64,000 nt of DNA from Candidatus Lustribacter sp. (lineage in GTDB: Bacteria > Vulcanimicrobiota > Vulcanimicrobiia > Vulcanimicrobiales > Vulcanimicrobiaceae): the NCBI GenBank assembly GCA_965277805.1, contig OZ255842.1, positions 2,144,001 to 2,208,000 on the forward strand, in the 5' to 3' direction. Shown piece by piece: positions 17,270 to 55,448 of this stretch (its first letter is position 1; every line of letters begins with the position of its first letter). The notes beneath the pieces were generated by a model. The model saw only the letters and a program-made list of their open reading frames with translations, was not told where the DNA came from and did no database searches. A program made the translations under genes and the position numbers.

Positions 17270-18463
17270 ATGATGCATGCCGTCTCGTTCCGCGCGCTCA
17301 TCGCGCTCTCGCTCCTCACGGTTCTGACCGTCTCCGCGAGCCCCGGCGCCCGGGCGCAAGACCGCGCCCCTTACGAGCTCAACGCCATCTTCGCCGTCAC
17401 CGGCCCGGCCGCGTTCATCGGCGGCCCCGCGGCCCAAGCCTTCAAAGTTATTGAGGGCTACGTAAATTCGACCGGCGGGATTCACGGCCGGCCGATTCAC
17501 ATGAACGTCCTCGACGACCAGACGAACCCGCAAGTCGCGGTGCAGCTCGTCAACGGCCTTGCTGCGAAACACGTCGCGGTCTTCATCGGACCCATGGCGA
17601 CCGCGTCATGCAACGCGGTGGTCGGCCTCATCTCGAACGGCCCGGTCGCGTATTGCGTCTCGCCGTTCATCAACCCGCCCTCAGGCGGCTTTATGTTCGT
17701 CCAAGGCGGCTCACCGATCGACGGCGGCGTCGTCACGCTGCGCTATCTCAAGGAGCGCGGATTGAAGCGCGTCGCGATGCTCGATGCAACCGACGCGACC
17801 GGACAGGCCCTCGACCGTGCAACAGAAGCGGCGTTCAGCTACCCCGAATTCCGCTCGATGCAGCTGGTCTCGCACTTGCACTTCTCACCGCAAGACGTCA
17901 GCGTCACGGCTCAGGTCTCACAGATCAAGGCCGCGAACCCGCAGGCACTAATAAGCTGGAACTTGGGAACCGCGTTCGGCACAGTCGCACACGGACTGCA
18001 CGACGCAGGCCTCGACAACTTACCGTTGGTCGTTGCCGGCGGCAACGCGAGCGCCAACCAAATCAAGGCGCTCGGCGGCTTCACGCCGACCGACATGCAC
18101 TTTCTGGTCAGCCCGCTGTGGGCGCAAGATTCGCGCGTTCCCAAAGACGTGAAGGATCAGGAAGCCCTCTTCGCGCGCGTGATGCACGACGCAAATTTGC
18201 CGAGCGACGGCGCCTACGCGAGCGACTGGGACATCACGATGGTCGTGATCGACGCGTTGCGCCACTTACCGCCCGATCCGACCGCCGAACAAATTCGCAA
18301 CTACATCTCGCACATCAGCCACTTCGTCAGCACGAACGGCACCTACGACTTCCGCTTCGGCAACCAAAGCGGCGCCGGCCAAACCATCTTCATCCTCGTC
18401 CACTGGGACCCCAAAAACAACCGCTTCAGCGCCTCCAGCCAAACCGGAGGCCACCCGCTCTAG
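17270..18463 (+). CDS. Orphan ABC substrate-binding protein (LivK-like)
   Basis: Signal peptide, VTGPAAFIG, NSTGGIHGRP, DDQTNPQVAVQL. Confidence 0.9.
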   Translation: MMHAVSFRALIALSLLTVLTVSASPGARAQDRAPYELNAIFAVTGPAAFIGGPAAQAFKVIEGYVNSTGGIHGRPIHMNVLDDQTNPQVAVQLVNGLAAKHVAVFIGPMATASCNAVVGLISNGPVAYCVSPFINPPSGGFMFVQGGSPIDGGVVTLRYLKERGLKRVAMLDATDATGQALDRATEAAFSYPEFRSMQLVSHLHFSPQDVSVTAQVSQIKAANPQALISWNLGTAFGTVAHGLHDAGLDNLPLVVAGGNASANQIKALGGFTPTDMHFLVSPLWAQDSRVPKDVKDQEALFARVMHDANLPSDGAYASDWDITMVVIDALRHLPPDPTAEQIRNYISHISHFVSTNGTYDFRFGNQSGAGQTIFILVHWDPKNNRFSASSQTGGHPL

Positions 18464-20376
18464 GCACTGTCATCCCGAGCTTGTCGAGGGACCGGCCAAC
18501 CGTTATTCGCGAGAAACTTCGACGGCACGAACAGCGGCATCCCATCCTCCCACATGCTATCCGTGAGCGGCCGCTTTCCACTTCCGTCGGCATTCATCAC
18601 CCAAATCTGCCCATACGGCTGGAACGTCGCATCGTAGAGCGTCGCCTCATTCCGGAATCCATACGACCCGGTGTTATAGGCAAGCTTCCCATCCCACGTC
18701 CAAACCGCGTGCGCGTTGTTCGCGCCGCCACTCGTCAACTGCGTCAGTCCCGTCCCGTCCGGCCGTATCGTATACACGTCGAACGACGTATACGTCACCT
18801 TGCGCGTGAATGCGATCAGCTTCCCATCCGGCGACCACTGAGGCAGGTTGTCGAACTGGTTCGTCAGCTCGCGAATATTGCGGGTCTGCAGATCGAGGAT
18901 GCGCAGCCCGCCGCTGGTTTCATTCCAAACGCGAAAAACGATATACCGGCCATCGGCACTATAACTCGGAAAGCCGGCGTTGATCGAGGCATCGGTCAGC
19001 GCCTCCGCACCCGAGCCGTCGCGTCGGCAGCGCCACAACACGGCCTTGCCGGTTGCACGCGCCGTAAGAAATCCGCCGACGCCGAATGCAAGCCACTCCC
19101 CGTCGGGTGACCACGCCGGCTGAAACGCTCCCGCCTGCCCCCGCGCCAGCATTTGCGGGTCTTGCCCGTGATCGACGGGATCGTATACCTTTCGCTTCGT
19201 CGTTGAATCGTAGTTCATGAGCACGACGGACGAGTCACCGAGTTGTTTCTGCGTGATCACCATCTCGCCGTTGCGCGAGAGCGCCGGGAAGACGTCGGTA
19301 TGGCGGTATTCCCAGCCGGGATCCCAGCCGTAGAGCTTCTTGCCGAACGGTCGGACCGGATTCATGCTCTGCTTTTCGTACACGACAAGCTTGCCGTCGG
19401 GTGACCATGCTGGAGAACGCAGCTGCCGCTTCAGCGGCGCTACCGCCGCCGAACTATAGGCGAGTCCCTCATCGGGGGTGTACTTTACTTGCCACGCAAG
19501 CAGATCGGGTGCCAGCCAATGCGGTGCCAGACGCAAACCGGGGCCTTGGCTGTGCTCAAGCCGCGCGCCGGTGTCCACGTTGACCGACACAATCTGCGAG
19601 GCCACTTTGCCCGCAGCTTCGGGACGATGCGCGCCCCACGTGCCTTCGGTCGTGATCTCGTAGTACGCGATACGCGTGCCGTCCGGCGACCACGCGGGCG
19701 AACCCAAGCTGAATCCCGGCTTGGTCGCTACCTGGCGAAAGCCGCTGCCGTCGGGCCGGATCACGTAGATGCTCAGCTCTTGCGTGTTCTCCCAGCCCTT
19801 ACCGTCGTCGTGGCCGCGCCACGCGGTGTTGCGGTCACTCGAGAAGGCAATCCACGTACCGTCGGGCGACCAAGCCGGTTTGAAAAAGCCGTCAGGTTTC
19901 GTCTGATCGCCCTGCACTTGCTTCGCACCGGTCAGGTTGCGCAGCCGCCCCGTGGCGATATCCATCGTCCAGATATTTGCGCGGTAGGTGTCACGCGTCG
20001 ACACGAACGCCAGCGTCCGACCGTCGGGCGACATCGCCGCGCCGTCCTCGACGGCCGGGCTCGCCGCGAGCGGCCGCATATTCGAACCGTCGAGATCGCA
20101 GCGAAAGATATCCGCTTGCCCGTCGCCGCTACGCTCGGACGTAAACACGATGCCGCGGCCGTCGGGCGTAAAGCGCGCGTGATAGTCGAAGCCGATCGTC
20201 GGAAGCAGCTTGCGCTCGCCCGAACCGTCGGCATTCGCAATGTACAGATCGGACACCGTCGGCGCGATGCGATTCATGTACATCACGCCGAGTTTCGCCG
20301 GCTGCGCCTGCGCCGGCGCGGCTTGCATCGCCAATGCCGTCAGCGGCACGGCTGAAATAAACGTGCGACGATCCAT
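18460..20376 (-). CDS. TolB-like PD40/WD40 beta-propeller protein, Tat-exported
   Basis: MDRRTFI Tat motif; many PAWSPDG/FSSDR repeats; the last codons run through a REP copy (VPRQARDD). Confidence 0.92.
   Translation of the reverse strand: MDRRTFISAVPLTALAMQAAPAQAQPAKLGVMYMNRIAPTVSDLYIANADGSGERKLLPTIGFDYHARFTPDGRGIVFTSERSGDGQADIFRCDLDGSNMRPLAASPAVEDGAAMSPDGRTLAFVSTRDTYRANIWTMDIATGRLRNLTGAKQVQGDQTKPDGFFKPAWSPDGTWIAFSSDRNTAWRGHDDGKGWENTQELSIYVIRPDGSGFRQVATKPGFSLGSPAWSPDGTRIAYYEITTEGTWGAHRPEAAGKVASQIVSVNVDTGARLEHSQGPGLRLAPHWLAPDLLAWQVKYTPDEGLAYSSAAVAPLKRQLRSPAWSPDGKLVVYEKQSMNPVRPFGKKLYGWDPGWEYRHTDVFPALSRNGEMVITQKQLGDSSVVLMNYDSTTKRKVYDPVDHGQDPQMLARGQAGAFQPAWSPDGEWLAFGVGGFLTARATGKAVLWRCRRDGSGAEALTDASINAGFPSYSADGRYIVFRVWNETSGGLRILDLQTRNIRELTNQFDNLPQWSPDGKLIAFTRKVTYTSFDVYTIRPDGTGLTQLTSGGANNAHAVWTWDGKLAYNTGSYGFRNEATLYDATFQPYGQIWVMNADGSGKRPLTDSMWEDGMPLFVPSKFLANNGWPVPRQARDDSA
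18468..18494 (+). repeat. REP-like palindrome, short type (TGTCATCCCGAGCTTGTCGAGGGACCG)
   Basis: Near-identical to the copies at 21370, 27576, 46192, 52691 and 62647. Confidence 0.9.
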
Positions 20377-20484
20377 AGATCACTCCCATGTAGCCTGAGG
20401 CGGCTACGGTGACCGGCCCGTTACGCATCTCTGCGCGGCAGTCCCACCCTCACATCGAAAGTCGAATCATGCCGGTGGCGCAGC

Positions 20485-21279
20485 TTATCGCTGGGGCAAG
20501 CGCGCCTCGTAGCCCTCCCAGGGCTTATCCGGCTTTTGCTCGGTGTCGTAGGCCGCCCGTTCGGCAGCGTTGAGAACGACCAGATGCCGACTGAGCGCCA
20601 GCGCGGCCATCTCGGCGCGCGCGTCAATATCGGTATAAATCGCCCGGACGGTGGCTTCTTTCACGCTCGGCCCGACGATCGTATCGCCGTGCCCGCGCAT
20701 CAAGACGACGGGGTTTTCGCCAAGCGCACGCGCCAACGCATCGCCGGTCGCCGCATCGCGCACGAGCATCCCTTTCTCAACGCCCGGAACGTTCCGTATT
20801 TCGAAGACGGGCGTAACGTCCGGCAGAAAGCCCGCTTGTCCAATAACCGGACGAAGCGGCGTGCCGCTGATCGGCAGCGGCAACACCGCCGGATCGTGCG
20901 TGTGGATCACCGACACCACATCCGGTCGCGCCAAATAAATGCGGCAATGAATGAAGCGTTCACCATTGAGCTGCACTGCCGAACGATTGACGGTCTCGCA
21001 CGTGGCGGCATCGAGCTCGACGATGTCACCACGCTGCACATCCCCCGGCGAAATCGCGCGCGGCATGAAGAGATGCTGCGGATTCTTGACCGAACGCACC
21101 GACGCATGCCCCCGGCTATCCATGACGCCCTCGTTCGCAAGAATGTGACTCGCCGTAATGAGATCCTGAATATTCGCTTCATCCGGATCACTCGCCACCG
21201 CCTGCTGCTGAGCCGAACCAACCCGCACCATTAGCGCAAGAACCAACAAAGCAATCAAAGCAACAGAACGCAAGCGCAT
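20485..21279 (-). CDS. Class II aldolase/adducin family protein with a Sec-type signal peptide
   Basis: MRLRSVALIALLVLALMVRVGSA signal; DSRGHASVR, ERFIH, IHTH, VLMRGHG. Upstream in-frame ATGs come from the tandem repeat. Confidence 0.88.
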   Translation of the reverse strand: MRLRSVALIALLVLALMVRVGSAQQQAVASDPDEANIQDLITASHILANEGVMDSRGHASVRSVKNPQHLFMPRAISPGDVQRGDIVELDAATCETVNRSAVQLNGERFIHCRIYLARPDVVSVIHTHDPAVLPLPISGTPLRPVIGQAGFLPDVTPVFEIRNVPGVEKGMLVRDAATGDALARALGENPVVLMRGHGDTIVGPSVKEATVRAIYTDIDARAEMAALALSRHLVVLNAAERAAYDTEQKPDKPWEGYEARLPQR

Positions 21280-21285
21280 TTTTTC

Positions 21286-21403
21286 TGTCATCCCGAGCTT
21301 CACTTTTGTCATCCCGAGCTGCATCTTTGTCATCCCGAGCCGCATCTTTGTCATCCCGAGCCGCATCTTTGTCATCCCGAGCTTGTCGAGGGACCGCCAC
21401 AAT
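21286..21403 (+). repeat. Tandem array of five 21-bp units (TGTCATCCCGAGC + 8 nt) ending in a full REP copy (21370-21403)
   Basis: Unit starts at 21286, 21307, 21328, 21349 and 21370. Confidence 0.95.
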
Positions 21404-21423
21404 CCCTCATTACGCAAGAACCG

Positions 21424-22155
21424 TTACGAAAACGCTTTCACCAAGAGCGCAATCCCAATCACGACCATAAACACAACAAACGCAAGCCGCAACTGACGCT
21501 CCGGCAAGCGATGCGCAAGATCAACCCCGAACCGCACCGCAAACACCCCGCCAACCGCCAGCGGCACCGCGACTCCCCAATCGACATCACCCTTCGACGC
21601 ATAGGCAAACGTCGTCAACGTACCCGACAAGACTGAGAACGCAAGCGACATCCCTTGCGCCGCGACCTGCGTGTAGCCAAAGAGCATCGTCATCGCCGGA
21701 ACGGCAACGATCGCACCGCCAATCCCAAACAGCCCGGAGCAGACCCCACACACCGCGCCGACAACACCGACAAACGGCCACGGCAACACCGCCACCGTTT
21801 CCGGCGTGCGGCGAGACAACGCCCGGCGCGCGATGTCGATCGCGATCAAAATGAGAAAGACGGCGAATCCGATGCGCAGTTCGCGGCTTGCAAGCGAGGT
21901 CGCGAAGAGCGCGCTCGCATACGTAAACGGCAGCGCGGTCACCCCAAGCAGCGCCGCCGCCCGCACATCGAGACCGACCTTCTGCGCATACCCCACCAAC
22001 GCGATGATGACATTCGGCATCGCCATGACGAGCGCCGTGCCTTGCGCGAGCTGCTCCGTTAAGCCAAAGACGATCCCGAGCGCCGGGATTGCGAGCGTCG
22101 CCCCGCCGATACCGAAGAGGCCGCCCAAAAAGCCGCAGAGTCCGCCGAGCACCAC
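21424..22155 (-). CDS. Sulfite exporter TauE/SafE family membrane protein
   Basis: Duplicated GxxGGLFGIGG...AQGTAL / SGLFGIGG...AQGMSL motifs; start uncertain. Confidence 0.9.
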   Translation of the reverse strand: MVLGGLCGFLGGLFGIGGATLAIPALGIVFGLTEQLAQGTALVMAMPNVIIALVGYAQKVGLDVRAAALLGVTALPFTYASALFATSLASRELRIGFAVFLILIAIDIARRALSRRTPETVAVLPWPFVGVVGAVCGVCSGLFGIGGAIVAVPAMTMLFGYTQVAAQGMSLAFSVLSGTLTTFAYASKGDVDWGVAVPLAVGGVFAVRFGVDLAHRLPERQLRLAFVVFMVVIGIALLVKAFS

Positions 22156-23234: not shown

Positions 23235-24476
23235 ATGAGCACGACGCAACCCCGCCCCACCGCTTCGTACGACGTCGGCGGCGTGAACCTGCCGCGTCCG
23301 TTCCGCGTCCGCCGCATCGGCCACTTAGGGATCAATGTCGACCGCATGGACGAGCAGTTGGAGTTCTACACCAAGCGACTCGGGCTGCGCGTCTCAGACC
23401 CGCTCAACTTCGGCCAGCGCCTGCCGCCTGAAGAGCAGGTAAAGCACAAATATCACACCGGCTACTTCCTGCGCCACGGTACCGACCACCACTCGTTCGT
23501 GCTCTTCCCGCGTTCGACGTACGAAGCGATGGCCGCGATGCGCGGCGGACGTTCCGATTCCCGCGTCACGACGAACCAGATCACGTGGCAAGTCGGCAGC
23601 TTGCGCGAAACCGTCGACGGCGCCGCGTATCTCGAGGAACACGGTTCGCACGTCACGCGCACCGGGCGCGATACGCCGGGTTCGAACTGGCACGTCTATC
23701 CGCTCGGCCCTGAGAATTTCGTCAACGAACTCTACTACGGCATTGAACAGATCGGCTGGGACGGCGAGAGCAAGCCCGAAGCGATGCATCAGATCAAGTA
23801 CACCGAAGCACCGCCGCTGCCGCATCGCTCCGAGTCGGCCGAAATCTTGGCCGCCACGGCCGCCGGCGTCGACATCGCATCGGGCGTGCGCACGTTCGAA
23901 ACCGAGGAAGAACGCTACGACGTCAGCGGCATCTTGCTCGGCCGTCCGTTCAAAGTCACGCGCGTCGGACCGGTGCGCCTCTTCCTCGAAGACGTCGCCG
24001 CGGCCATCCCGTTCTACCGCGACGTCTTAGGCCTCGCCGTTACGGAAGAGGTCACCTGGAACGGACATCGCTGCGTGTTCCTTCGCGCCAACACCGAACA
24101 CCACTCGATTGCGCTCTATCCCGTCGCCCTGCGCGACGAACTCGGCCTACGCGCCGATAGCAAACTCTTCTCCATCGGCTTCCAAGTCGCCGACTACCGC
24201 CAGCTGCGCGATGCATTGCAATACTTCCGCGACGCCGGCACAACCGTGCGCGAACTTCCCGTCGAATTATTCCCCGGCATCGACTACAGCGCGTTCGTCC
24301 TCGACGCCGACGGCAACGCCGTGCAGCTCTACTACTACATGGAGCAAATCGGCTGGGACGGAAAACCGCGCACCGCCGCGCAACGCCGCAAGGTCGTCCC
24401 CGGCGAATGGCCCGCATCCCTCGACGCCATGGGCGACACGTTCCTAGGCGAACCCTACCTCGGCCCCTGGGGCTAA
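23235..24476 (+). CDS. Two-repeat VOC (glyoxalase/extradiol dioxygenase) family protein
   Basis: Internal duplication RPF..R.G / FLR..T.HHS / LYY..EQIGWDG; start reassigned to ATG 23235. Confidence 0.88.
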   Translation: MSTTQPRPTASYDVGGVNLPRPFRVRRIGHLGINVDRMDEQLEFYTKRLGLRVSDPLNFGQRLPPEEQVKHKYHTGYFLRHGTDHHSFVLFPRSTYEAMAAMRGGRSDSRVTTNQITWQVGSLRETVDGAAYLEEHGSHVTRTGRDTPGSNWHVYPLGPENFVNELYYGIEQIGWDGESKPEAMHQIKYTEAPPLPHRSESAEILAATAAGVDIASGVRTFETEEERYDVSGILLGRPFKVTRVGPVRLFLEDVAAAIPFYRDVLGLAVTEEVTWNGHRCVFLRANTEHHSIALYPVALRDELGLRADSKLFSIGFQVADYRQLRDALQYFRDAGTTVRELPVELFPGIDYSAFVLDADGNAVQLYYYMEQIGWDGKPRTAAQRRKVVPGEWPASLDAMGDTFLGEPYLGPWG

Positions 24477-24504
24477 AAAAGTGAGGCAAGAAGACACGCC
24501 TCGC
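24475..24504 (-). terminator. Probable intrinsic terminator of the iclR-like transcript
   Basis: GTGAGGC-N10-GCCTCGC stem preceded by AAAAAA on + (U-tract on -), between convergent genes. Confidence 0.45.
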
Positions 24505-24549
24505 GCCCACGGCCATCGGCTACTCAAGCGAACGTGACCTTTTTATCTC

Positions 24550-24592
24550 TGTCGTCCTGAGCGGAGCGCCGACGGGCGCGCAGACGAAGAAC
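24550..24592 (+). repeat. REP-like palindrome, long type with inner GCGCC-GACG-GGCGC hairpin (diverged)
   Basis: TGTCGTCCTGAGCGGAGCGCCGACGGGCGCGCAGACGAAGAAC, homologous to the 43043 copy. Confidence 0.8.
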
Positions 24593-24643
24593 GCGAGAGC
24601 ATCTTGCATATGCGCCAGGGCAACGCCACGAACGGGCAGTGCG

Positions 24644-25408
24644 CTACCGAATCGCGCTACCCGCAGCCTTACAAGCACTACGTAACGCTGCCACCATCCG
24701 CGCCCGATCGCTCGTACGAAACCGGGCCTGCGGTCCCGAAATCGTCATCGCCCCACGCAGCTCACCAGTGCGACTCATCACCGCGCAGCTCAACGCATAC
24801 AATCCAGGCTCACTCTCCGCATCGTTGATGGCAAACCCGCGCTCGCGCACAAGTTGCAAATCCCGCAACAGCGCCGTCCGCGTGCGAATGGTCCGCCGCG
24901 TCAGCGCAGGCAACGCCTCACGCGGATAACGCTCGCGGACAGCAGCATCGCCCAGAACCGCAAGCATGGCCTTCCCACCCGACGTAGCGTGCGCCGCGAG
25001 CACCGTGCCGGTGCGATTCCCCGCTCGCAGCGCCCTCGTCGACTCCACCCCGCCAAGAAACACAACGTCGGCACCGCGCAGCGTACACACGTGCACCGTC
25101 TCGCCGAACGTCGACGCGAGCGTCTCCAAATGCGGTCGCACGGCACTCTGCACGTCATCGTTCGCCGCAACCACGCTGCCCAGCGCAACGAGCGCAGGCC
25201 CAGCATGGTAGGCCCGCGTGTTCTCGTTCTGCACGACAAACTCGAAGTGCGCCAACATCGCGAGCAACCGGTGCGCGGTCGAACGCGCGACGCCGAGGAG
25301 GCGGCTCGCTTCGGTAACCCCGATCGACGGCCGCTCCCGAAACTCCAGCAACAACTGGAGGGCATTACCGACCGCCTCGACCGGGTACCGCGGCGCCGTA
25401 TTCTGCAT
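24644..25408 (-). CDS. IclR family transcriptional regulator
   Basis: GVTEASRLLGVARSTAHRLL HTH, GETVH, HATSGGKAMLA, VRERGFAINDAE. Confidence 0.94.
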   Translation of the reverse strand: MQNTAPRYPVEAVGNALQLLLEFRERPSIGVTEASRLLGVARSTAHRLLAMLAHFEFVVQNENTRAYHAGPALVALGSVVAANDDVQSAVRPHLETLASTFGETVHVCTLRGADVVFLGGVESTRALRAGNRTGTVLAAHATSGGKAMLAVLGDAAVRERYPREALPALTRRTIRTRTALLRDLQLVRERGFAINDAESEPGLYALSCAVMSRTGELRGAMTISGPQARFRTSDRARMVAALRSACKAAGSAIR

Positions 25409-25995: not shown

Positions 25996-27563
25996 CCAAC
26001 CCCTACGACGTCATCGTCATCGGTGCCGGACCAACCGGCCTAGCCGCCAGCTTGTTTCTTCATGCGCACGGTGCGCGCGTGGCGCTGCTCGAACGCGAAG
26101 CTGCGACCGTCGTAGAACCACGCGCCGTCACCCTCGACGACGAATCGATGCGTGCGATGGCGACCCTCGGGCTCATCCCGCAACTGCAGCCGCTCATCTT
26201 ACCGGGTTACGGCACGCGCTGGTACACCGGCACCGGCCGCGAGCTGGCCCGCGTAAGCGCCAACGCGACGCGCTACGGTTACGGTTGCCGCAACGGCTTC
26301 TCGCAACCGGATTTCGTGAATCTGCTGGCGCGCACGCTGGCCGAACGCGCCGAGGTGCGCTTCGAGACGACGGTGACGTCGGTCGAACAAGACGCGGACG
26401 GCGTCACGGTGAAAACACGCGGAACGGACGGCTGGCCCCAGACCTATCGCGCCCGCTATGCCATCGCGTGCGACGGCGCCGCCTCGCCGATCCGCGAGGC
26501 CCTCGGCATCCAACTCGAAGGCGACACGCACGCCCAGCCGTGGCTCATCGTCGACACCATCAACTCAACCGAGACCGATCGCTACTCGAAGTTCTACTGC
26601 GGCAACCCACGCCCGTACGTCGCGGTGCCGGGCCGCGACGGCCGGTTGCGCTACGAATTCATGTATTTGCCCGGCGAAGATCCCGAGCAGATGCGCAGCG
26701 CCGACGACGTGCGCCGCTGGCTGCAAGGCCGCCGCGATCTGCCCGATGCGGACATCATCCGCATCGCACCCTATCGCTTTCACTCGCGCGTGAGCCCGCG
26801 CTGGCGATCCGGCCGCCTCTTCTTCGCCGGCGACGCGGCGCACCTGATGCCGCCGTTTGCCGGCCAAGGCATGAACGCCGGCATTCGCGATGCGTTCAAC
26901 CTCGGCTGGAAGCTCGCGCAAGTCGTACGCGGCCATGCCGGCGACGCGTTACTCGACACGTACGAGCGCGAACGCAAACCCCATGTGCGCGCGATGCTCA
27001 AGCTTTCCGAGATCATCGGCACCGTCGTCATGTCGCGCGACTCGACTGCGGCGAGGGCACGTGACGTCTTCCTCGGCACGGCCCGCCACGTCCCCGGCCT
27101 GCGCGAGTACATCGCCGAAATGCGTTTCAAACCGAAAGCCAGCTACCGCGACGGCTTCGTCCACAACAAAGGCCCGCTCGCGCACCTCACCGGACGGCTC
27201 GCGCCGAACCCAATGGTCGTCGACGACCAAAACATCCCGCGCCGCCTAGACGACGTCCTCGGCGACGGCTTCGCTCTGCTCTCCATCAGTGCATCCGGCA
27301 ACCCGATCGCACCGCAAACCACATCACCCTTGCTGGCAGCCCTCAACCCCCGCCACGTGCGCCTGTGCTCAGGCGAATTCATCGCGCTACCGCATCCCGG
27401 CTGCGTCTCAGTCGCCGATACTTACGCCGCCTTCGCCCGCGAGCTCGCCCTAAATCGCGACGCCATCATCCTCATCCGCCCCGACCGCGTAATAGCCGCC
27501 GCCACTCCTGCCAAAAATTTCCCCGCCGCCGAACAAAACCTAACCCGCACCTACTCCCAGTAG
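25992..27563 (+). CDS. FAD-dependent aromatic hydroxylase (MhpA-like)
   Basis: GAGPTG, ACDGAAS, AGDAAHLMPPFAGQGMNAGIRDAFNLGWKL, IRPDRV; TTG start overlapping the upstream TGA. Confidence 0.92.
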   Translation: MTNPYDVIVIGAGPTGLAASLFLHAHGARVALLEREAATVVEPRAVTLDDESMRAMATLGLIPQLQPLILPGYGTRWYTGTGRELARVSANATRYGYGCRNGFSQPDFVNLLARTLAERAEVRFETTVTSVEQDADGVTVKTRGTDGWPQTYRARYAIACDGAASPIREALGIQLEGDTHAQPWLIVDTINSTETDRYSKFYCGNPRPYVAVPGRDGRLRYEFMYLPGEDPEQMRSADDVRRWLQGRRDLPDADIIRIAPYRFHSRVSPRWRSGRLFFAGDAAHLMPPFAGQGMNAGIRDAFNLGWKLAQVVRGHAGDALLDTYERERKPHVRAMLKLSEIIGTVVMSRDSTAARARDVFLGTARHVPGLREYIAEMRFKPKASYRDGFVHNKGPLAHLTGRLAPNPMVVDDQNIPRRLDDVLGDGFALLSISASGNPIAPQTTSPLLAALNPRHVRLCSGEFIALPHPGCVSVADTYAAFARELALNRDAIILIRPDRVIAAATPAKNFPAAEQNLTRTYSQ

Positions 27564-27575
27564 TCGCCCCCAACT

Positions 27576-27609
27576 TGTCATCCCGAGCTCGTCGAGGGAC
27601 CGCCACAAT
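27576..27609 (+). repeat. REP-like palindrome, short type
   Basis: TGTCATCCCGAGCTCGTCGAGGGACCGCCACAAT between convergent genes. Confidence 0.9.
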
Positions 27610-27610
27610 T

Positions 27611-32782: not shown

Positions 32783-32826
32783 ATCGGCAGCGTACCCGGC
32801 TCTTCTGAGACCACTCTGGGCAGCAA

Positions 32827-34065: not shown

Positions 34066-34121
34066 ATCCGCGGGAGGGGTTGCCAAAAGTTTATCGCATC
34101 CTAGGTTCGGCAAACCATATA

Positions 34122-36168: not shown

Positions 36169-36171
36169 GCA

Positions 36172-43024: not shown

Positions 43025-43042
43025 CACCGAACACATTTTTTT

Positions 43043-43094
43043 TGTCATCCCGAGCGGAGCGCCGAATGGCGCGGAGACGAGGGACCGCCACAAT
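43043..43094 (+). repeat. REP-like palindrome, long type with inner GCGCC-GAAT-GGCGC hairpin
   Basis: TGTCATCCCGAGCGGAGCGCCGAATGGCGCGGAGACGAGGGACCGCCACAAT, preceded by a T-run. Confidence 0.9.
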
Positions 43095-43118
43095 GCCGAA
43101 AGCCAGAGGAACACACGC

Positions 43119-45166: not shown

Positions 45167-46698
45167 TTCAAGCCGTCGATCCCGCCACGGGCCAAGCGCT
45201 GGAGCCCCCCTACGCCACCTCGAGCAGCGCCGACGTCGCCGCAGCATGCATCCGCGCAGCGGCGGCGTTCGAGGCCTACCGCGAACTGGCACCCGAAACG
45301 CGCGCAACGTTTCTGGAGACGATCGCGACCGCTCTCGAAGCGCGCGGTGACGACCTCATCGTGCGCGCGATGGCCGAGAGCGGCTTGCCGCGCGCGCGTC
45401 TCGCCGGCGAGCTCGGCCGCACCAGCGGCCAGTTTCGGTTGTTCGCGCGCGTCGTGCGCGAGGGCGCGTGGGCCGGCGTCGTGATGGACAAGCCGCTGCC
45501 CGATCGCCAGCCGCTGCCTCGTCCGGATCTACGTCAGCGCAAAATCGCGCTCGGCCCGGTTGCGGTCTTCGGTGCGTCGAACTTCCCGCTCGCGTTCTCG
45601 GCCGCCGGTGGCGATACGGCATCCGCACTCGCAGCCGGCTGCCCGGTCGTGGTCAAGGGACATCCCGCACATCCCGGTACGTCTGCACTCGCCGGCGACG
45701 CGATCCGTGAAGCCGTCGTAACGTGCAAACTTCCGGACGGCGTCTTCTCGTTGCTGCAGGGCGCATCGAACGAACTCGGCGCAGCTCTCGTCGCGGATCC
45801 GTACATCAAAGCCGTCGGCTTCACCGGCTCGCGCGCCGGCGGCCTCGCTCTCGTCGCCATCGCGCAGCACCGCCCCGAACCGATCCCCGTCTACGCCGAA
45901 ATGTCGAGCGTCAACCCGGTCATCCTGTTACCCGCCGCACTGAACGCACGCGCCGAAGCCATCGCCAAAAGCTACGTCGCCTCCCTCACCGCAGGCGCCG
46001 GCCAATTCTGCACCAACCCCGGCATCGTCTTCGCAATAACGGGCCCACACCTAGACCGCTTCATCACCGCCGCCGCCGAAGCATTAGCCGCGATCCCCCC
46101 GCAAGTAATGCTGACCGCCGCCATCCACGCCAACTACACCACCCGCATCACCAACCTAAAATCAACCCCCGGCACCACCCTCGTGGCCCCCTGTCATCCC
46201 GAGCTTGTCGAGGGACCGCAACTATCTTCATCACAAGCCACACTCGCCGGAGCCGCGCTCTTCACCACCGACGCGCAAAGCTTCCGCGCCAACCCCGAAC
46301 TCGCACACGAAGTCTTCGGCGCCTCATCCCTAATCGTACGCTGCGCAAACCTCGAAGAGATCGCCGCCTGCATCAAAGGCATGGAAGGCCAACTCACTGC
46401 CACGCTCCAGACGGACGAACCCGATTACCCCGCCGCGCGCACGCTGCTCCCGCTCCTGGAACTGAAGGTCGGCCGCATCCTCATCAACGGTTGGCCGACC
46501 GGCGTGGAAGTCTCCCGCGCCATGGTGCACGGCGGCCCCTACCCCGCAACGTCCGACTCGCGCACCACATCCGTCGGCGCCGCCGCCATCGACCGCTTCC
46601 TCCGCATGGTCTGCTACCAAGACGTCCCCGACGACCTATTACCGCCCCCGCTAAAAACCGCCAACCCCTGGAACATCCCGCAAGCAATCTTCGACTAA
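45163..46698 (+). CDS. Aldehyde dehydrogenase, 2,5-dioxovalerate/alpha-ketoglutaric semialdehyde dehydrogenase type
   Basis: FGASNFPLAFS, KGHPAHPGTS, GFTGS, AEMSSVNP, GQFCTNPG, EVFG, HGGPYPATSD; carries an in-frame REP. Confidence 0.94.
   Translation: MIQAVDPATGQALEPPYATSSSADVAAACIRAAAAFEAYRELAPETRATFLETIATALEARGDDLIVRAMAESGLPRARLAGELGRTSGQFRLFARVVREGAWAGVVMDKPLPDRQPLPRPDLRQRKIALGPVAVFGASNFPLAFSAAGGDTASALAAGCPVVVKGHPAHPGTSALAGDAIREAVVTCKLPDGVFSLLQGASNELGAALVADPYIKAVGFTGSRAGGLALVAIAQHRPEPIPVYAEMSSVNPVILLPAALNARAEAIAKSYVASLTAGAGQFCTNPGIVFAITGPHLDRFITAAAEALAAIPPQVMLTAAIHANYTTRITNLKSTPGTTLVAPCHPELVEGPQLSSSQATLAGAALFTTDAQSFRANPELAHEVFGASSLIVRCANLEEIAACIKGMEGQLTATLQTDEPDYPAARTLLPLLELKVGRILINGWPTGVEVSRAMVHGGPYPATSDSRTTSVGAAAIDRFLRMVCYQDVPDDLLPPPLKTANPWNIPQAIFD
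46192..46219 (+). repeat. REP-like palindrome in frame inside the ALDH gene (encodes CHPELVEGP)
   Basis: TGTCATCCCGAGCTTGTCGAGGGACCGC, identical to the core of the 21370 copy. Confidence 0.92.
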
Positions 46699-47297
46699 CC
46701 CTCTTCCGCAAACACCTCAGCGTACGTTTTGCCGTACGGATAAAACTTGTCTTTCTCACCGGCCTTCCAGGCCGCCGCGACGTCCGCTCGCGACAAATCC
46801 CAATCCCACCGGCACGCTTGCAAGACCGCGCGCAAATCTTGCCGCAGATCCTCCACCGTCGGGCGCCCGAAGAACCAGTACCCATTGTAGATCTTGTGCA
46901 CGACGCGATCCGGCGCGCACACGATCGTATGCGGCACCATCGGATTGTGATCCGGGTCGGTGTACTCCGGAATATCCAGATCCTTTTGCACGATCCGCCG
47001 CGGATCCGAAAGAAACGGCCACGGCGCCGCCACCGCGTTCCGGAACTCGTTCGTCTCGAGCAAATTGTCGGTACTGATCGTCACCATCTTGCAGTAACCC
47101 ACGCCGGGCATCATCTCGCGCCACAGCACCGCGAGCCCCTCGTGCTGCCGGCGATCCTTCGGGCAGTAAGAGCCGCGCGAGAGCACGACGATCATGGGGT
47201 CTTGCCCCTGGATCTCCGAGAGCTTCCGGCGCTTCCCGCTGTGATCCGATAACTCGTAGTCGGGCAGTTGCGATCCAGGGACGATATCTGCGCGCAT
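46695..47297 (-). CDS. AhpC/TSA (redoxin) domain protein
   Basis: PDYELSD, RGSYCPKD, TISTD, FLSDP, GRPT; GGAGG RBS before ATG 47297. Confidence 0.85.
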   Translation of the reverse strand: MRADIVPGSQLPDYELSDHSGKRRKLSEIQGQDPMIVVLSRGSYCPKDRRQHEGLAVLWREMMPGVGYCKMVTISTDNLLETNEFRNAVAAPWPFLSDPRRIVQKDLDIPEYTDPDHNPMVPHTIVCAPDRVVHKIYNGYWFFGRPTVEDLRQDLRAVLQACRWDWDLSRADVAAAWKAGEKDKFYPYGKTYAEVFAEEG

Positions 47298-50901: not shown

Positions 50902-51373
50902 GGAGCGCCAATTGCGTCTTCTTGCTGGCAATTTTCCAACCCTCAGAAGTTTTCTTGTGAATTTCAACGGTTGGAAATACTGCCACGATCCCCTTCGTCT
51001 GCCCGGGCTTGCCGTCTTTGCCGCGCGCACCCGGAATGACGCACGTCAGGGCGCGCACTTCGGCCGTATCCGCGTCGATGATGTTGACCTCGATATTGTT
51101 CACGAGATGGAACACCATGCGGTCTTCCTGCGGAATCGCCGGGTTCCCGCGTTCCGGCAACTTGTTCACGTGCGCCGCGATCTCTGCGCGCCCCGTAAAC
51201 GCCGACTCATCGCCGTCACGGTACCACATGCCGTCCTCGGCAAAGATTGCGGCGGCTTCATCACCGCGCACGCCGTCGAGCCGGTTGTAGAACCGAATCG
51301 TATTCTGCGCGCACTCCCACTCGATTGCGTGGCGCTCGGCCAGCGTCAAGCTCACGCGATCAACCGGCGGCAA
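50891..51373 (-). CDS. NTF2/SnoaL-like domain protein
   Basis: FYNRLD, IFAEDG, GRAEI, HLVNN, GWKIA. Confidence 0.85.
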   Translation of the reverse strand: MPPVDRVSLTLAERHAIEWECAQNTIRFYNRLDGVRGDEAAAIFAEDGMWYRDGDESAFTGRAEIAAHVNKLPERGNPAIPQEDRMVFHLVNNIEVNIIDADTAEVRALTCVIPGARGKDGKPGQTKGIVAVFPTVEIHKKTSEGWKIASKKTQLALRVG

Positions 51374-52661
51374 CGGCGGCGCGCTCCGCGATCAAATGGA
51401 CGAGATCGGTGTTCGGAATCGATTCCTCAGCCAGCACATCGAACGAGCAGAGCAGCCGGTAGTCGTTCTTGTTCGGATCGCGCAGCACGCCGAGCGGCTC
51501 GCGCCCGGCCTTGACGTCCTCGATCGCCTTGAGCATCAGCTTGCGGGCCGCGAGCAGCGCCACGTCCGTCGTGGCTAGATGCTCGCGCGTCCGGTTCTGA
51601 ATCGGCCCTTGGCTTTCGGTCGCAAACGCATCGTGCGTGTTGAAGTTCGGCCCCATGCCGGTGTAGTTTTGGTTCATCGTGCTGCGGTCTTGCAGATAGC
51701 GATTGGACTTCTTGCGCGCCAAGCGAAACTCCGACTCGTATTCGTTGGAACTCCGGCTGCGCACCACGCGGCTGGTTGAATCCAGCGGCGCGTCGCGGCG
51801 CAATGCGAAGTGCCAGCGCCAATGCGTGTAGTCGTCGATCGGCACGTGCCAGATCCCGATGTGCCCGTCGCCGCCCTGCGGCCCCGCGATCACGGAGAAA
51901 TTCGGCATGCCGAAGATCGTCACGCGCACGTACTTGCGGCCGTCGCCGCCCGAGCGCAATTGGAAGATGCGCATGCCGAAATCCGTATTCTCGGTCTCGA
52001 GGCGTGGCGTTTCTTCGGGCTCGATCAGCGCCTCATCCGTCTCCGGCACGCCGACGCGATGCAAGTTCCCGAACTTCAGTCCCGGTTTGCGATCGGCTTC
52101 AAAAGAACGGTGCAAAAAACCAACGTGCCCCGGATCGTAGTTCCCTTCGTTCGCCTGCAAGTAATTGCAGTCGACGAACACTTTCGCAGCGTGCAGATGC
52201 TCGCCCGGATACGTGAAGAAATCGTAGTTGGGAAACTCGGGCGGCTCGCCCTCACCCATGTATGCGAAAAACGCGCCGGCCTTCTCCACCACCGGATACG
52301 CGCGCTGCCGAACCTTCGACTTGAACGTGCTCTCCTTCGGCTCGGCCGGCTGATCCAAACAGCAGCCCGTCACGTCATACAGCCAGCCGTGGTAAAGACA
52401 GCGCAATCCACCATCTTCAAGCCGCCCGTACGACAGATCGGTGCCGCGATGGCAGCAGTGCCGGTCGAGCAGCCCGAGCCGACCCTGGTCGTCGCGGAAG
52501 AGCACCAGCTCCTCACCCATCACGTCAACCGAAACCGGCGCCCCACCCACCGGCAACTCCGTTGATAGCGCGACCGGTTGCCAATAACTCCGCAACAGCT
52601 TCCCGCCCGGGGTCCCGGCCGAAGTCCGAGTAAGCGCATCATTCTGTTCTTGCGTCAGCAT
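51360..52661 (-). CDS. Rieske non-heme iron oxygenase alpha subunit (phthalate 4,5-dioxygenase/LigX-like)
   Basis: GTPGGKLLRSYWQP, CCHR..CLYHGW, CNYLQANEGNYDPGHVGFLH, HDAFA, EHLATTD. Confidence 0.93.
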   Translation of the reverse strand: MLTQEQNDALTRTSAGTPGGKLLRSYWQPVALSTELPVGGAPVSVDVMGEELVLFRDDQGRLGLLDRHCCHRGTDLSYGRLEDGGLRCLYHGWLYDVTGCCLDQPAEPKESTFKSKVRQRAYPVVEKAGAFFAYMGEGEPPEFPNYDFFTYPGEHLHAAKVFVDCNYLQANEGNYDPGHVGFLHRSFEADRKPGLKFGNLHRVGVPETDEALIEPEETPRLETENTDFGMRIFQLRSGGDGRKYVRVTIFGMPNFSVIAGPQGGDGHIGIWHVPIDDYTHWRWHFALRRDAPLDSTSRVVRSRSSNEYESEFRLARKKSNRYLQDRSTMNQNYTGMGPNFNTHDAFATESQGPIQNRTREHLATTDVALLAARKLMLKAIEDVKAGREPLGVLRDPNKNDYRLLCSFDVLAEESIPNTDLVHLIAERAAVAAG

Positions 52662-52690
52662 CCCGCCGATTTCGATCAACCATTAATCAA

Positions 52691-52777
52691 GTCATCCCGA
52701 GCTCGTCGAGGGACCGCCACCAACCTTTTGTCACCCCGAGCAAAGCGCCGAAGGGCGCGCCGTCGAGGGGCCGCCAC
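52691..52777 (+). repeat. Two tandem REP-like palindromes (short 52691-52720; long 52729-52777)
   Basis: GTCATCCCGAGCTCGTCGAGGGACCGCCAC and TGTCACCCCGAGCAAAGCGCCGAAGGGCGCGCCGTCGAGGGGCCGCCAC in the divergent intergenic region. Confidence 0.9.
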
Positions 52778-52799
52778 CCATCTCGCCAACCACGGCAGC

Positions 52800-53741
52800 A
52801 TGAACCGCGACAAGCTGATCAAGTCAGCCCTCGCCACAGCCGTGGCCGGCGCCGTGCCGCGCATCGCCCGGGCCCAGACGCGCACCCAAATGCACGTCGC
52901 GACGCTCCCAGTGGACGCCGACGCCACCGCCTGGTTCGGCATCGACCAAGGCTTCTTCGCGCAAAACGGCCTCGACGTAACTGTAGAAGTCATCACCAGC
53001 GGAGGCGCGATCGTGGCCGGCGTCGCCGGCGGCGCGCTCGACGTCGGCGTCGCCAGCATCGGCTCGCTCTCCACCGCCCACTCGCACGGCATACCCGTCG
53101 TCGCGCTCGCCCCGGGCGGCCTCTACAACGGCGCCCTTCCCACGAGCGTCCTCGCGGTAGCGCAAAACTCGCCGCTCCGCACCGCCAAGGACCTCACCGG
53201 CAAGATCATCGCAATCCAAACCCTCGGCGAACTCGCATCATTCTCAATCTCATCCTGGATCGACCACAACGGCGGCGACGCCAAATCCGTGAAGTTCGTC
53301 GAAATCCCCACGTCGTCCATGACCGACGCCATAACGAAGGGCCGCGTCGACGCAGCCTTCATCGCCGAGCCGTTCTACTCACTCGGAAAACCCGCCATCC
53401 GTTTCTTCGCGCCGACCTACGACGGCGTGGCAAAACGCTTTCTCATTAGCGCCTGGGTCGCACGCCGCGAATGGATCGCACAAAACCCCGACATCGCCGC
53501 AAAATTCGTCGCCGCGATGCGCACCGCCGCCGTCTGGGGAAACCAAACCGCGAACCTCACGGCATCCGGCGCGATCCTCGGGAAATACACGCACATCGCG
53601 CCCGACACGATCGCCAAAATGCAACGCGCCCAATTCGCAACGCAACTCGATCCTGCGCTCATCCAACCCGTCATCGACGTCTCAGCCCAATTCGGCGTCA
53701 TCCCGAAAGCCTTTCCAGCCTCGGAGATCATCGCCAAATGA
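52800..53741 (+). CDS. Orphan SsuA/THI5-like ABC substrate-binding protein
   Basis: GFFAQNGLDV, DLTGKII, GRVDAAFIAEP, LDPALIQPVID. Confidence 0.9.
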   Translation: MNRDKLIKSALATAVAGAVPRIARAQTRTQMHVATLPVDADATAWFGIDQGFFAQNGLDVTVEVITSGGAIVAGVAGGALDVGVASIGSLSTAHSHGIPVVALAPGGLYNGALPTSVLAVAQNSPLRTAKDLTGKIIAIQTLGELASFSISSWIDHNGGDAKSVKFVEIPTSSMTDAITKGRVDAAFIAEPFYSLGKPAIRFFAPTYDGVAKRFLISAWVARREWIAQNPDIAAKFVAAMRTAAVWGNQTANLTASGAILGKYTHIAPDTIAKMQRAQFATQLDPALIQPVIDVSAQFGVIPKAFPASEIIAK

Positions 53742-53759
53742 ACGTGAGCCACCGGCTCC

Positions 53760-55448
53760 TTAGACACCACCGAAGCGTAGGCGGTTGAAACTGATCATCT
53801 GCACGAGCGGATCCGCACGATCGCCGCTCGCCGCGCGATCGACCAGCACGTTCACGACGGCCGTCTTCCCCCCGCGCACCGCCGCTAACGCCCGATCGAA
53901 GGCGGGGCCGACATCCGCGGGCGTCGGGGCAAACTCGCCGTCACATTCCAATCCTCGCGCAACGACGTCATACCGGCTCTGATTCATATCCACTCCGGTC
54001 GTGCCGTTGAATAACCGCAGCGTAATGTTGCGGCTCGAACCCCACGTGCCATCGTTCGCCACCATCACGAAGATAGGCAGCCTGTGGAGCGACGCGGTCG
54101 CAAGTTCGGCGAGATACTGTCCGAACGCACCGTCGCCGGTCCCGAGATACACGTGACGCGAGCTACCGTCTTCCTGAAACGCCGCCGCCGCGCCGATCGC
54201 AAACGGTAAGCCCATTCCCATCGCCCCGAACGGTTCGTGATCCAGAAATCCGGGCGACGATTGAATCCGCAGCGTCGCCTTATACCAGTTGTTGCAATTC
54301 GCGCCGTCGCCGACAAACAGCGCGTCCGGAGCCATGCGCGCGGCAAGTTCGCGCGCCATGCGCAGAGGATGCACTTGCCCCTCGTCGGATTTTCCCAAGC
54401 TCGCGATCTTCGCCACGCGCGGCGCAATGGCGGCCTTCGCCCAACTCCCGTCCCACGCAGCGGCCTTCGCTGCAACCAAATCGTCTCGCAGCGCCTCGAG
54501 CGCGAGCCGCGTGTCGCCCGCCATCGGCGCTTCAACCACGCGGTTGCGTCCGATCTCTGCCGCAGTGTTCGTAATCTGAATGTACGCCGCGTCGACTGCA
54601 AAGAACGGCGGCGCGGCAAACCCGATACCGCCCTCGAGCCGTCCGCCGGCAAAAATGACGACGTCCGCTTCGCGCGCGCAGATGCTCCCCATCGGCCAGC
54701 CGAACACGGTCTCAAAATCTTCGGGAATGAGTCCGCGGCTCGGGCCCTGCAGCAACACCGGAATGCCGAACTCGCGATTGAGCTGCGATAAAACGTCGCC
54801 CGCATGCGACCAATACGCCCCGCGTCCCGCTACGATGAGCGGTCGCTTCGCCTTCGCCAACAACGCCGATGCACGGGCCACGTCTTCCGGCGCCGGACGC
54901 GGTTCGCGCGCGCGAATCACCGGCCCGAGCGAACGCGCCGCCACGGCTTCATCCACTTCCGCCGTCGCAACGTCACGCGGAATCTCAAGCAGCACGGGGC
55001 CCGGGTCGCCGGAGAGCGCGATCCGCGCCGCCATCTCGACGTACTCGCCGAGCCGGTTCGCATCGTGCACGACTTGCGACCACTTCGTCACCGAGCGCAC
55101 CAGCCGCGCATGATCGAGCTCTTGCTGCGGGCGCGCATCGAGCATCGCAAACGGGTTCCGTCCCGCGAAGACGATCAGCGGCGTCCCGGCATCGTTGGCC
55201 GATGCGATCCCGCCGACCGCGTTCGCCAGTCCCGGCCCCGATGTTACGCACGCGACCCCAAGCGAACGCCGCGTCGTCGCGTACCCATCGGCCGCGAGCA
55301 CCACCGCGCTCTCGTGGCGCATGTGCAGCAGCCGCATGCCGCGCCGGTCGACCGCCCCGAAGAACGATTCGAGGTGTCCGGGCAAACCGAACACCGTCCG
55401 AACGCCTTGGCGCTCCACCGCCGCCGCCATCAGGTCCGCTCCAAGCAT
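53760..55448 (-). CDS. TPP-binding enzyme (ALS/2-hydroxyacyl-CoA lyase/benzaldehyde lyase-like)
   Basis: RHESA, TSGPG, PGPVLLEIP, GAMGMGLP, GDGAFG...ND; AGGAG RBS before ATG 55448. Confidence 0.92.
   Translation of the reverse strand: MLGADLMAAAVERQGVRTVFGLPGHLESFFGAVDRRGMRLLHMRHESAVVLAADGYATTRRSLGVACVTSGPGLANAVGGIASANDAGTPLIVFAGRNPFAMLDARPQQELDHARLVRSVTKWSQVVHDANRLGEYVEMAARIALSGDPGPVLLEIPRDVATAEVDEAVAARSLGPVIRAREPRPAPEDVARASALLAKAKRPLIVAGRGAYWSHAGDVLSQLNREFGIPVLLQGPSRGLIPEDFETVFGWPMGSICAREADVVIFAGGRLEGGIGFAAPPFFAVDAAYIQITNTAAEIGRNRVVEAPMAGDTRLALEALRDDLVAAKAAAWDGSWAKAAIAPRVAKIASLGKSDEGQVHPLRMARELAARMAPDALFVGDGANCNNWYKATLRIQSSPGFLDHEPFGAMGMGLPFAIGAAAAFQEDGSSRHVYLGTGDGAFGQYLAELATASLHRLPIFVMVANDGTWGSSRNITLRLFNGTTGVDMNQSRYDVVARGLECDGEFAPTPADVGPAFDRALAAVRGGKTAVVNVLVDRAASGDRADPLVQMISFNRLRFGGV

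Follow-up and report, generated by a model that had tools for sequence, protein, structure and literature searches.

A REP-like element accompanied by strand-specific depletion of G and T at neighbouring silent sites in Candidatus Lustribacter

Introduction

The repetitive extragenic palindromic (REP) elements of Escherichia coli act as partial Rho-dependent terminators and as mRNA stabilizers, and an excess of C over G is typical of Rho-dependent terminators, according to the consulted portions of a recent preprint (bioRxiv 10.64898/2026.03.23.713779). Here we analyze a family of REP-like elements in a Candidatus Lustribacter genome, starting from a stretch of 64,000 nucleotides (bases 2144001-2208000 of the single contig; hereafter the window), and describe zones beside the elements, which we call halos, in which one DNA strand is depleted of G and T at silent codon positions. 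The Rho utilization (rut) site spans about 80 nt. Vertebrate mitochondrial DNA has a strand asymmetry graded with single-stranded time, kataegis denotes strand-coordinated clusters of mutations made by APOBEC/AID, and Rickettsia palindromic elements occur as in-frame insertions in protein genes. Full-text literature searches, and the portions consulted of the REPIN paper (PMC3116915), turned up no account of compositional halos around REP-type elements.

A sequence-only reading of the window had reported G-depleted halos centred on the elements irrespective of gene orientation, and had ascribed them to loss of C from the minus strand, supposedly left single-stranded after element-directed nicking, through kataegis-like deamination or error-prone repair. 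The account that we favour, at a probability of roughly 0.45, is a lineage-specific bias of DNA-level repair or exposure, with a polarity set by the element's own strand.

The Element Family

The genome under study (G000) is a single contig of 5.53 Mb with 64% G+C. A 25-base motif, GTCATCCCGAGCTTGTCGAGGGACC, occurs six times in the window against a chance expectation of 0, always on the + strand, and up to four mismatches give 135 genome copies (78 on +, 57 on -). An nhmmer catalogue with a short and a long form as source, at a threshold of E 0.01 on which the element set depends, holds 244 genome copies (142 short and 102 long); in the window it adds three long-form copies to the six 25-mer sites, so that there are nine elements, all on +. 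The long form combines the ends of the short form with an additional internal hairpin and reads roughly GTCATYCCGAGC-(GAAGCGCC-GNAG-GGCGCG)-NNG-ACGAGGRA-CCGCCACNATCG. A loose regular expression had produced 762 matches, mostly false, and was dropped for nhmmer.

Most copies start a few bases 3' of a stop codon, and most are singlets, with occasional inverted doublets and tandem arrays. Their orientation is balanced on both replichores except at 2.0-2.3 Mb, where 22 copies lie on + and 0 on -. Paired variants, read by eye, are common in this genome and in its relatives (CCC...GGG to CCT...AGG; ATCCC...GGGAC to ACCCC...GGGGC) and argue for a putative small helix under constraint. The hairpin is not more stable than that of shuffled sequence (folding-energy z of +0.81 for the short form and -0.14 for the long form), and Rfam contained no family for the window at the gathering score and none for the long element at E values as high as 10. 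Among 201 sampled genomes from the phylum, the short form was detected in 28 of the 113 that belong to the same family, compared with 0 of 87 others. Other genera carry the element in long tandem arrays (for example, L017 and L023). A second repeat, roughly GAGTGCGACCGCGAAGGCGGGAGCAGTGG, often follows the long form after a short spacer (for example, at G000:C1:1016-1060 and 3154560-3154670, and in L078), and some genes facing its reverse complement likewise have C-rich tails.

Halos Follow the Strand of the Element

The + strand of the window contains 21475 C and 18737 G, and its 400-nt profile has sharp GC-skew troughs at 18.4, 21.2, 24-25, 27.2, 46.0-46.8 and 52.4-54 kb. All eight G/C intervals that had been counted by hand in the window were reproduced exactly. 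GC skew falls below -0.4 in six of 1065 overlapping 120-nt windows; these form three clusters, and all six lie within 500 nt of an element, a zone that takes up 13.2% of window positions. Across the genome, where 300-nt windows have a GC-skew standard deviation (SD) of 0.07, a + copy lies within 300 nt of nine of the 24 islands below -0.3, and a - copy within that distance of none; of the 13 islands above +0.3, two are accompanied by a - copy and none by a + copy; most islands without a short-form copy turned out to adjoin a long form. The sign of the skew reverses at oppositely oriented copies, both in these islands and at four-fold degenerate sites genome-wide, as the sequence-only reading had predicted, and the same-orientation copy that it expected beyond the left edge of the window was located 148 nt left of position 1.

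Genes were called genome-wide with our own simple and crude likelihood caller (5004 genes), and the GC skew of gene tails, taken in sense over the last 150 nt, depends on the next element. Tails with no element within 3 kb average -0.035 (n=2913), those followed by a co-oriented short element -0.197 (n=35; Mann-Whitney p 2e-14), those followed by a co-oriented long element -0.273 (n=47; p 4e-22), and those followed by an anti-oriented short element -0.074 (n=37). The profile of the halo was obtained from four-fold sites near 134 isolated elements that lie outside 2.10-2.26 Mb, with bases read on the element strand. Co-oriented genes on the 5' side have a GC skew of -0.56 and an AT skew of +0.52 in the 0-100 nt bin (n=1577); farther out, GC skew recedes through -0.27 and -0.14 to -0.08, near a baseline of -0.07; genes far from any element have -0.02 to -0.06. 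Anti-oriented genes on the 5' side show a weaker halo (-0.18, -0.10 and -0.05, toward +0.04), which is real, because control gene starts have -0.02 in sense, or about +0.02 on the element strand. On the 3' side no halo was found at four-fold sites of co-oriented genes, and convergent genes have +0.17 and +0.14, a slight C-richness in their own sense, part of which comes from degenerate co-oriented copies seen by eye. The strength of a halo is uncorrelated with the score of its element (rho about -0.01 and -0.02), the score being a poor proxy for age.

Leading or lagging strand does not set the sign of the halo: halo tails have -0.217 and -0.204 on the leading strand and -0.181 and -0.320 on the lagging strand. 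Models based on Okazaki priming or replication gaps require a dependence on replication direction that the data lack, and were rejected. Antisense read-through from convergent genes was rejected as well, given that halos occur in tandem contexts (-0.139, n=32) as well as in convergent ones (-0.187, n=46).

Because the halo genome-wide is one-sided and about 2.5 times stronger in co-oriented genes, a link to transcription, which the sequence-only reading had ruled out, has to be considered. The main alternative to the favoured account, at a somewhat lower probability, is selection at the RNA level for an unstructured, C-rich and G-poor stretch upstream of the sense element, serving as a rut site for Rho loading or as the landing pad of another factor; selection of this kind might then have moved the silent sites of the preceding gene tail toward C and A. 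Genome-wide, the halo is 5' only, has its core within 100-200 nt and is strongest where the upstream gene is co-oriented, most elements stand a few bases past a stop codon, some convergent gene pairs have mirror-image C-rich tails, and Rho is encoded in the genome, all of which favour such selection. So does the precedent of the E. coli REPs, together with the C-over-G skew that the consulted portions of the preprint give as typical of Rho-dependent terminators (bioRxiv 10.64898/2026.03.23.713779). Moreover, co-oriented 150-nt tails carry the C-over-G skew of a Rho-dependent terminator, over a stretch of about 80 nt or more. Against RNA-level selection stands the halo in anti-oriented genes on the 5' side, along with further results from one region, from relatives and from recent substitutions, given below.

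The Halo Resides at Silent Sites

Silent sites were compared between 94 halo tails and 3063 control tails. At four-fold sites, G falls from 0.406 in control tails to 0.219 in halo tails and T from 0.076 to 0.038, while C rises from 0.447 to 0.642 and A from 0.070 to 0.101. Two-fold codons move in the same direction, with the A share of purine-ending codons at 0.71 in halo tails and 0.45 in control tails, and the C share of pyrimidine-ending codons at 0.87 and 0.72, respectively. Codon positions 1 and 2 are barely shifted, and amino-acid frequencies are nearly constant (ratios of 0.88-1.28, halo vs. control tails); the skew is therefore not due to amino-acid composition. G is depleted before every next base, the ratio of halo to control being 0.41 before G, 0.52 before A, 0.59 before T and 0.62 before C. 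Deamination of the non-template strand in R-loops was rejected as a cause, since it predicts a G+T-rich sense strand, the opposite of the data.

A Co-oriented Array With Two-Sided Halos

The sequence-only reading had held that the halo extends to both sides of the element and is independent of gene orientation. This is the case around 2.03-2.35 Mb, including the window, but not elsewhere, where the halo is 5'-sided; the two-sided, strand-independent form is a regional peculiarity. The 3' flank falls below -0.15 at 18 elements in the genome, 13 of them in 2.03-2.25 Mb and another at 2.354 Mb. When genes around the 14 isolated elements of 2.10-2.26 Mb are sorted by side and orientation, each of the four classes has a skew of -0.3 to -0.7 within 400 nt, and of -0.14 to -0.25 even at 0.7-1.2 kb. 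At four-fold sites within 500 nt of an element in 2.11-2.25 Mb, + genes (n=1259) have a + strand skew of -0.445 and - genes (n=1170) one of -0.336, so the skew sits at synonymous sites in genes of both strands, as had been claimed for this region. Since - genes in 2.10-2.26 Mb share the + strand polarity, they are shifted toward T- and G-ending codons there, against the preference of the genome, and the tails of six genes that face a + element from the opposite strand are G-rich in their own sense (+0.227).

These observations count against RNA-level selection, under which opposite-strand genes in 2.10-2.26 Mb should not share the + strand polarity and thus have G-rich mRNAs of their own; the skew there does not follow the transcribed strand of each gene, as it would in Rho-dependent terminators. 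Halos of 400 nt to more than 1 kb also far exceed the roughly 80 nt of a rut site. Furthermore, one of the strongest two-sided halos surrounds an element that lies within an open reading frame (ORF), that of an aldehyde dehydrogenase in the window, where a role of the element in a terminator or 3' untranslated region is implausible.

The elements might merely coincide with a regional or replication-linked skew, or with the composition of foreign DNA. In keeping with this, the 50-kb bins over 2.10-2.25 Mb are the three most negative of the genome (-0.053, -0.078 and -0.042), and the region has several insertions relative to two relatives, G003 (about 91-93% identical) and G004 (about 81-86% identical). 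More than 1.5 kb from any element, however, the four-fold skew of the region is just 0.03-0.05 below that of the remaining replichore, and a 14-kb insertion without elements (709-14679) is unskewed. The same polarity rule also applies genome-wide, on both replichores and in both orientations, and identical orthologous columns differ in skew between G000/G003 and G004. Coincidence of this sort is very improbable and already largely refuted. Skew is tied to the element and its orientation rather than to the replichore or to amino-acid composition, as the sequence-only reading had expected, and its main cause is neither replication skew nor amino-acid or foreign composition.

Relatives With and Without Elements

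Elements and halos are common to G000 and G003, and G004 has some of them but not all. At the 27577 site, where G004 has no element, its FAD-monooxygenase tail is normally G-rich, and the tails of G000 and G003 encode the homologous peptide with recoded codons (G004 vs. G000/G003: GTG>ATC, GCG>GCC, AAG>AAA). In an alignment of 8755 orthologous columns, G000 has a GC skew of -0.113, G003 one of -0.121 and G004 one of -0.032. Between G004 and the state shared by G000 and G003, changes are strongly directional: G>C 188 vs. C>G 68, G>A 154 vs. A>G 82, and T>C 139 vs. C>T 75; within 300 nt of elements, 115 changes lead from G or T to A or C and 14 the other way. The proposal that the minus strand loses C is borne out by the net flux of G>C and G>A on the + strand, and has to be widened to include T>C. 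The difference rate in this comparison is 0.144 within 300 nt of elements and 0.083 beyond 1 kb; this higher deeper-branch divergence near elements records the original shift.

In a comparison of five genes picked for extreme G000 halos, in genomes that are related to one another, so that only the direction should be read from it, mean third-position tail skew was -0.74 in 12 orthologs from the genus with a co-oriented element next (range -0.37 to -0.95) and -0.30 in 19 element-free orthologs (range +0.18 to -0.68), with the nearest element-free relatives intermediate. One ortholog query returned only paralogs (L059), and another a single intact ortholog (L056).

These data bear on reverse causation, in which the elements would insert into, or survive only beside, A+C-rich tracts that already existed, the halo being a target preference. 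Some observations fit it: a skew below -0.2 occurs in about 5% of control tails, which have no recognized element, 37 of the 100 tails poorest in G are more than 3 kb from any element, element score and halo strength are uncorrelated, and in G003 the tail of an rpoC-like gene is skewed despite the lack of an element. On the other hand, several of the 37 tails contain element remnants, and element-free orthologs become less skewed with distance (+0.18, -0.06, -0.17 and -0.32 in G005; a normal tail in G004 at 27577). Directional substitution near elements is ongoing in both terminal lineages, and it is difficult to regard two-sided halos within conserved coding sequence as targets that were there beforehand. 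We consider reverse causation very unlikely.

In other genera of the family, the mean 5' skew at elements is -0.06 (53 element instances at 29 loci, many in tandem arrays). The halo is therefore no automatic companion of the element, which implies a lineage-specific trans factor; RNA-level selection has difficulty with these mostly halo-free elements. It also has difficulty with the rpoC-like gene (L062, G000:C1:1077720-1077830), after which the element lies between the stop codon and a canonical intrinsic terminator made of a hairpin and a T-run. In G003, this gene has the terminator and the skewed tail but no element, in what looks like a clean element loss.

Recent Substitutions Show a Deficit of One Change Class

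Changes on the terminal branches of G000 and G003 were polarized by parsimony with G004 as the single outgroup, in a three-way alignment of about 8.8 kb from one region. The kataegis-like hypermutation of the sequence-only reading does not appear in either lineage: there were 303 changes at 3667 sites within 1 kb of elements and 401 at 4087 sites beyond, with no rise in rate, and neighbouring changes in the same lineage were not clustered (117 observed vs. 123.7 expected). With rates beyond 1 kb as the expectation near elements, losses of C or A from the element strand (C>T, C>G, A>G, A>T) numbered 95 against about 163 expected, or 0.58 of expectation, and losses of G or T numbered 162 against about 157, which is no excess. 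Per site, G>A outnumbered its complement C>T 3.43-fold near elements and 1.14-fold far from them. Mis-polarization, where G004 keeps the pre-halo base, would somewhat inflate the class that removes G or T, but cannot explain why C>T is depleted 2.3-fold. Both lineages are therefore still subject to the bias, which shows as a shortfall in one class of change and not as a mutation storm.

A deficit of C- and A-removing changes is what purifying selection on composition would give, and to that extent it agrees with selection at the RNA level; the favoured changes, however, are not accelerated (162 vs. about 157 expected).

Elements and Halos in the Window

The G-poor troughs of the window coincide with its nine co-oriented elements. 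The first of these is a short form at 18465..18495 (+; nhmmer 39.4 bits; exact 25-mer) between two genes identified with Pfam, a PBP-type gene (17270-18463, +) and a convergent PD40 gene (18460-20376, -), the last codons of which it overlaps. The tails of both genes fall within a core island depleted of G and T on the + strand at 18250..18600 (genome 2162250-2162600), with 300-nt GC skew below -0.3. The second, at 21329..21406 (+; 25-mer and nhmmer), is a short form preceded by two tandem partial copies of its own 5' half, with a period of 21 at 21329-21368, in a core G/T-depleted island at 21200..21800 (genome 2165200-2165800; -0.345 for 21201-21600). These two co-oriented short elements bound a 2.9-kb segment (18461-21384) with two genes, for a PD40 beta-propeller and a class II aldolase, both on -. 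The segment is missing from G003, which has a single long-form element at the junction, and so has a cassette-like look.

A long form with an internal hairpin follows at 24547..24606 (+; nhmmer 31.3 bits), with a weaker halo over 24001..25200 (-0.16 to -0.21 per 400 nt; -0.15 and -0.25 in the flanks of the element). The short form at 27574..27610 (+; 25-mer and nhmmer) lies between the FAD monooxygenase gene (25992-27563, +) and a binding-protein gene (27611-28597, -; both from Pfam), in a two-sided core G/T-depleted island at 27200..27700; G003 has a long form at this site and G004 no element, the orthologous G004 sequence being normal in composition. Another long form, at 43040..43096 (+; nhmmer), is just 3' of the gene at 41474-43024. 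Directly right of it is a 3.7-kb block of three genes (43032-46700) that is missing from G003 and G004. At the orthologous junction, G000 and G003 have long forms with different internal hairpins and G004 has a short form plus a partial copy (L010, L012); with different forms at one orthologous junction, the element therefore turns over or interconverts in place.

The intragenic element is a short form at 46189..46227 (+), in frame in the aldehyde dehydrogenase gene 45163-46698 (Pfam Aldedh over residues 2-458 of 511). Relative to PDB 1eyy, the protein gains 12 residues from it, APCHPELVEGPQ, and is otherwise alignable from end to end (E 3.8e-146). At 1.1 kb, the core island on either side of this element (45800..46900; genome 2189800-2190900; -0.368 and -0.302) is larger than any other in the window. 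Crude gene calls suggest 11 further intragenic copies genome-wide, this copy being the one confirmed. A short and a long form in tandem at 52690..52778 (+; 25-mer and nhmmer) separate a Rieske/LigXa-type gene (51360-52556, -) from an NMT1-type gene (52800-53741, +; both from Pfam), within a broad halo over 52401..54000 (-0.17 to -0.24 per 400 nt). The diverged short form at 62645..62682 (+; 25-mer and nhmmer) has hardly any halo, with flank skews of -0.08 and -0.06, and the weaker effect noted at 62647 from the letters is thus accurate.

Eight of eight window gene calls scanned against Pfam had matches, and of two added ORFs, the alternative frame was unmatched and the longer start matched. 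Synteny with G003 and G004 breaks at or beside several elements. Further blocks missing in relatives, at 709-14679 (14 kb; not in G003) and 31592-40609 (not in G003 or G004), are not element-bounded.

Discussion

The mechanism that we have in mind would make the REP-like element the source of a standing substitution bias in neighbouring DNA, in which C and A take the place of G and T on the element strand, chiefly at silent codon positions. Its reach would be 100-400 nt on the 5' side of the element, and about 1 kb on both sides in the co-oriented array at about 2.03-2.35 Mb. The element might mark one strand for repeated excision and resynthesis, or, equivalently, might leave the complement as the 'master' from which copies are made. 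Deaminated C and A, as lesions on the element strand, would then be erased, and lesions on the complementary strand kept and copied across. Transcription in the direction of the element would strengthen the effect, and the outcome would be a steady state with no hypermutation burst. Erasure of lesions on the element strand predicts a deficit of C- and A-removing changes, as was counted in the terminal branches. Tentatively, then, a cis element may nucleate strand-specific tracts of repair or exposure 0.1-1 kb long, making one strand the master copy at about 240 sites and recoding the silent positions of its neighbours, together with a few residues.

An asymmetry at the level of DNA fits the polarity shared by both gene orientations, the 5' halo in anti-oriented genes, the intragenic halo, the long tracts, the halo-free genera and the lack of acceleration among favoured changes. 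Several results weigh against it. Apart from one region, the halo is confined to one side and is 2-3 times stronger where gene and element are co-oriented, as expected of an effect on RNA, and a DNA-level model needs an added link to the direction of transcription. The confinement of 3' halos to 2.03-2.35 Mb is not accounted for, and some intragenic or co-oriented elements have no halo. In the terminal branches, T>C on the element strand is not raised (0.0215 near, 0.0288 far), and weak selection (S about 0.6) would likewise match the counts to within about 2 SD. The gene calls are crude and our own, and polarization relied on parsimony with a single outgroup.

The searches for an agent, which covered Y1, RVT_1, TnpB and integron integrase but not the GIY-YIG and deaminase families, belong on the same side of the balance. 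A RAYT or HUH gene, which the sequence-only reading had proposed to look for, was not found: the Y1 HUH transposase model PF01797 had 0 matches in the complete single-contig genome, with a positive control search in six of 14 known genomes. A search with Y2_Tnp likewise had 0 matches, but its control search was without matches anywhere as well. The genome has no RVT_1 gene, and conversion based on reverse transcription was rejected for this reason. No TnpB-type nuclease was found in the genome, and the integron integrase model TIGR02249 had a best match of 50 bits against a cut-off of 265. The sole tyrosine-recombinase-like gene picked up by that model, far below the cut-off, is at G000:C1:1527610-1528299, near the skew-inferred terminus. 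No enzyme gene flanked by inverted elements was found, the genes between inverted pairs being ordinary (pseudouridine synthase, CHRD, aminotransferase, ECF sigma, CheB and HAD).

If an asymmetry of mutation or repair is the cause, a small repeat can locally overrule the codon usage of a genome, which would distort measures of synonymous-site evolution, codon adaptation and horizontal transfer, and would point to a new strand-marking activity in a poorly studied phylum. If selection is the cause, the halos would be among the strongest RNA-level footprints in coding sequence, with four-fold G halved over about 200 nt in some 80-90 genes, and Rho loading inside gene tails would be directly testable. 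On either reading, the elements provide a natural experiment that separates mutation bias from selection at silent sites.

Comparison With Known Systems

Several known systems resemble these elements in part. Like integron attC sites and cassette arrays, they are co-oriented structured sites at gene 3' ends, with conserved ends and length-variable centres; a two-gene segment between co-oriented copies is missing in a relative, and synteny breaks at elements. Unlike integrons, they have no integron integrase and are dispersed in both orientations, and other insertions in the window are not element-bounded. The copy at 46189-46227, as an in-frame 12-residue insertion in an otherwise full-length aldehyde dehydrogenase, recalls the Rickettsia palindromic elements, but is the one confirmed copy of its kind here and does not explain the halo. 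REPs and REPINs with their RAYTs are likewise short elements in hundreds of mostly intergenic copies, with paired arm variants and occasional inverted doublets and tandem arrays. Here, in contrast, there is no Y1 HUH transposase, most copies are singlets and the hairpin does not exceed shuffled stability.

With Rho-dependent terminators and the E. coli REPs the elements share a C-rich, G-poor sense strand upstream of a repeated hairpin-like element after stop codons, in a genome with Rho. They differ in that the skew occupies silent sites of coding sequence over 100-400 nt or more and includes an excess of A over T. It also has one DNA-strand polarity in both gene orientations and on both sides (in one region), as well as around an intragenic element, and other genera that carry the element mostly show no halo.

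Kataegis offers a parallel in the strand-coordinated net loss of C (C>T, C>G) near synteny breaks, with a slight preference for a pyrimidine-C context; that preference is weak, however, T is depleted too, and recent lineages show neither clustering nor a rise in rate. The cause may be a local, element-programmed asymmetry of mutation or repair, which would then have no described bacterial counterpart. In vertebrate mitochondrial DNA, as here, one strand is A+C-rich and its complement G+T-rich, in a gradient from a fixed cis element that is clearest at four-fold sites. In the genome studied here, by contrast, the asymmetry is local (0.1-1 kb), is repeated at about 240 chromosomal elements independently of replication direction, has G>C as its largest net flux and is currently maintained by a deficit of changes that remove C and A.

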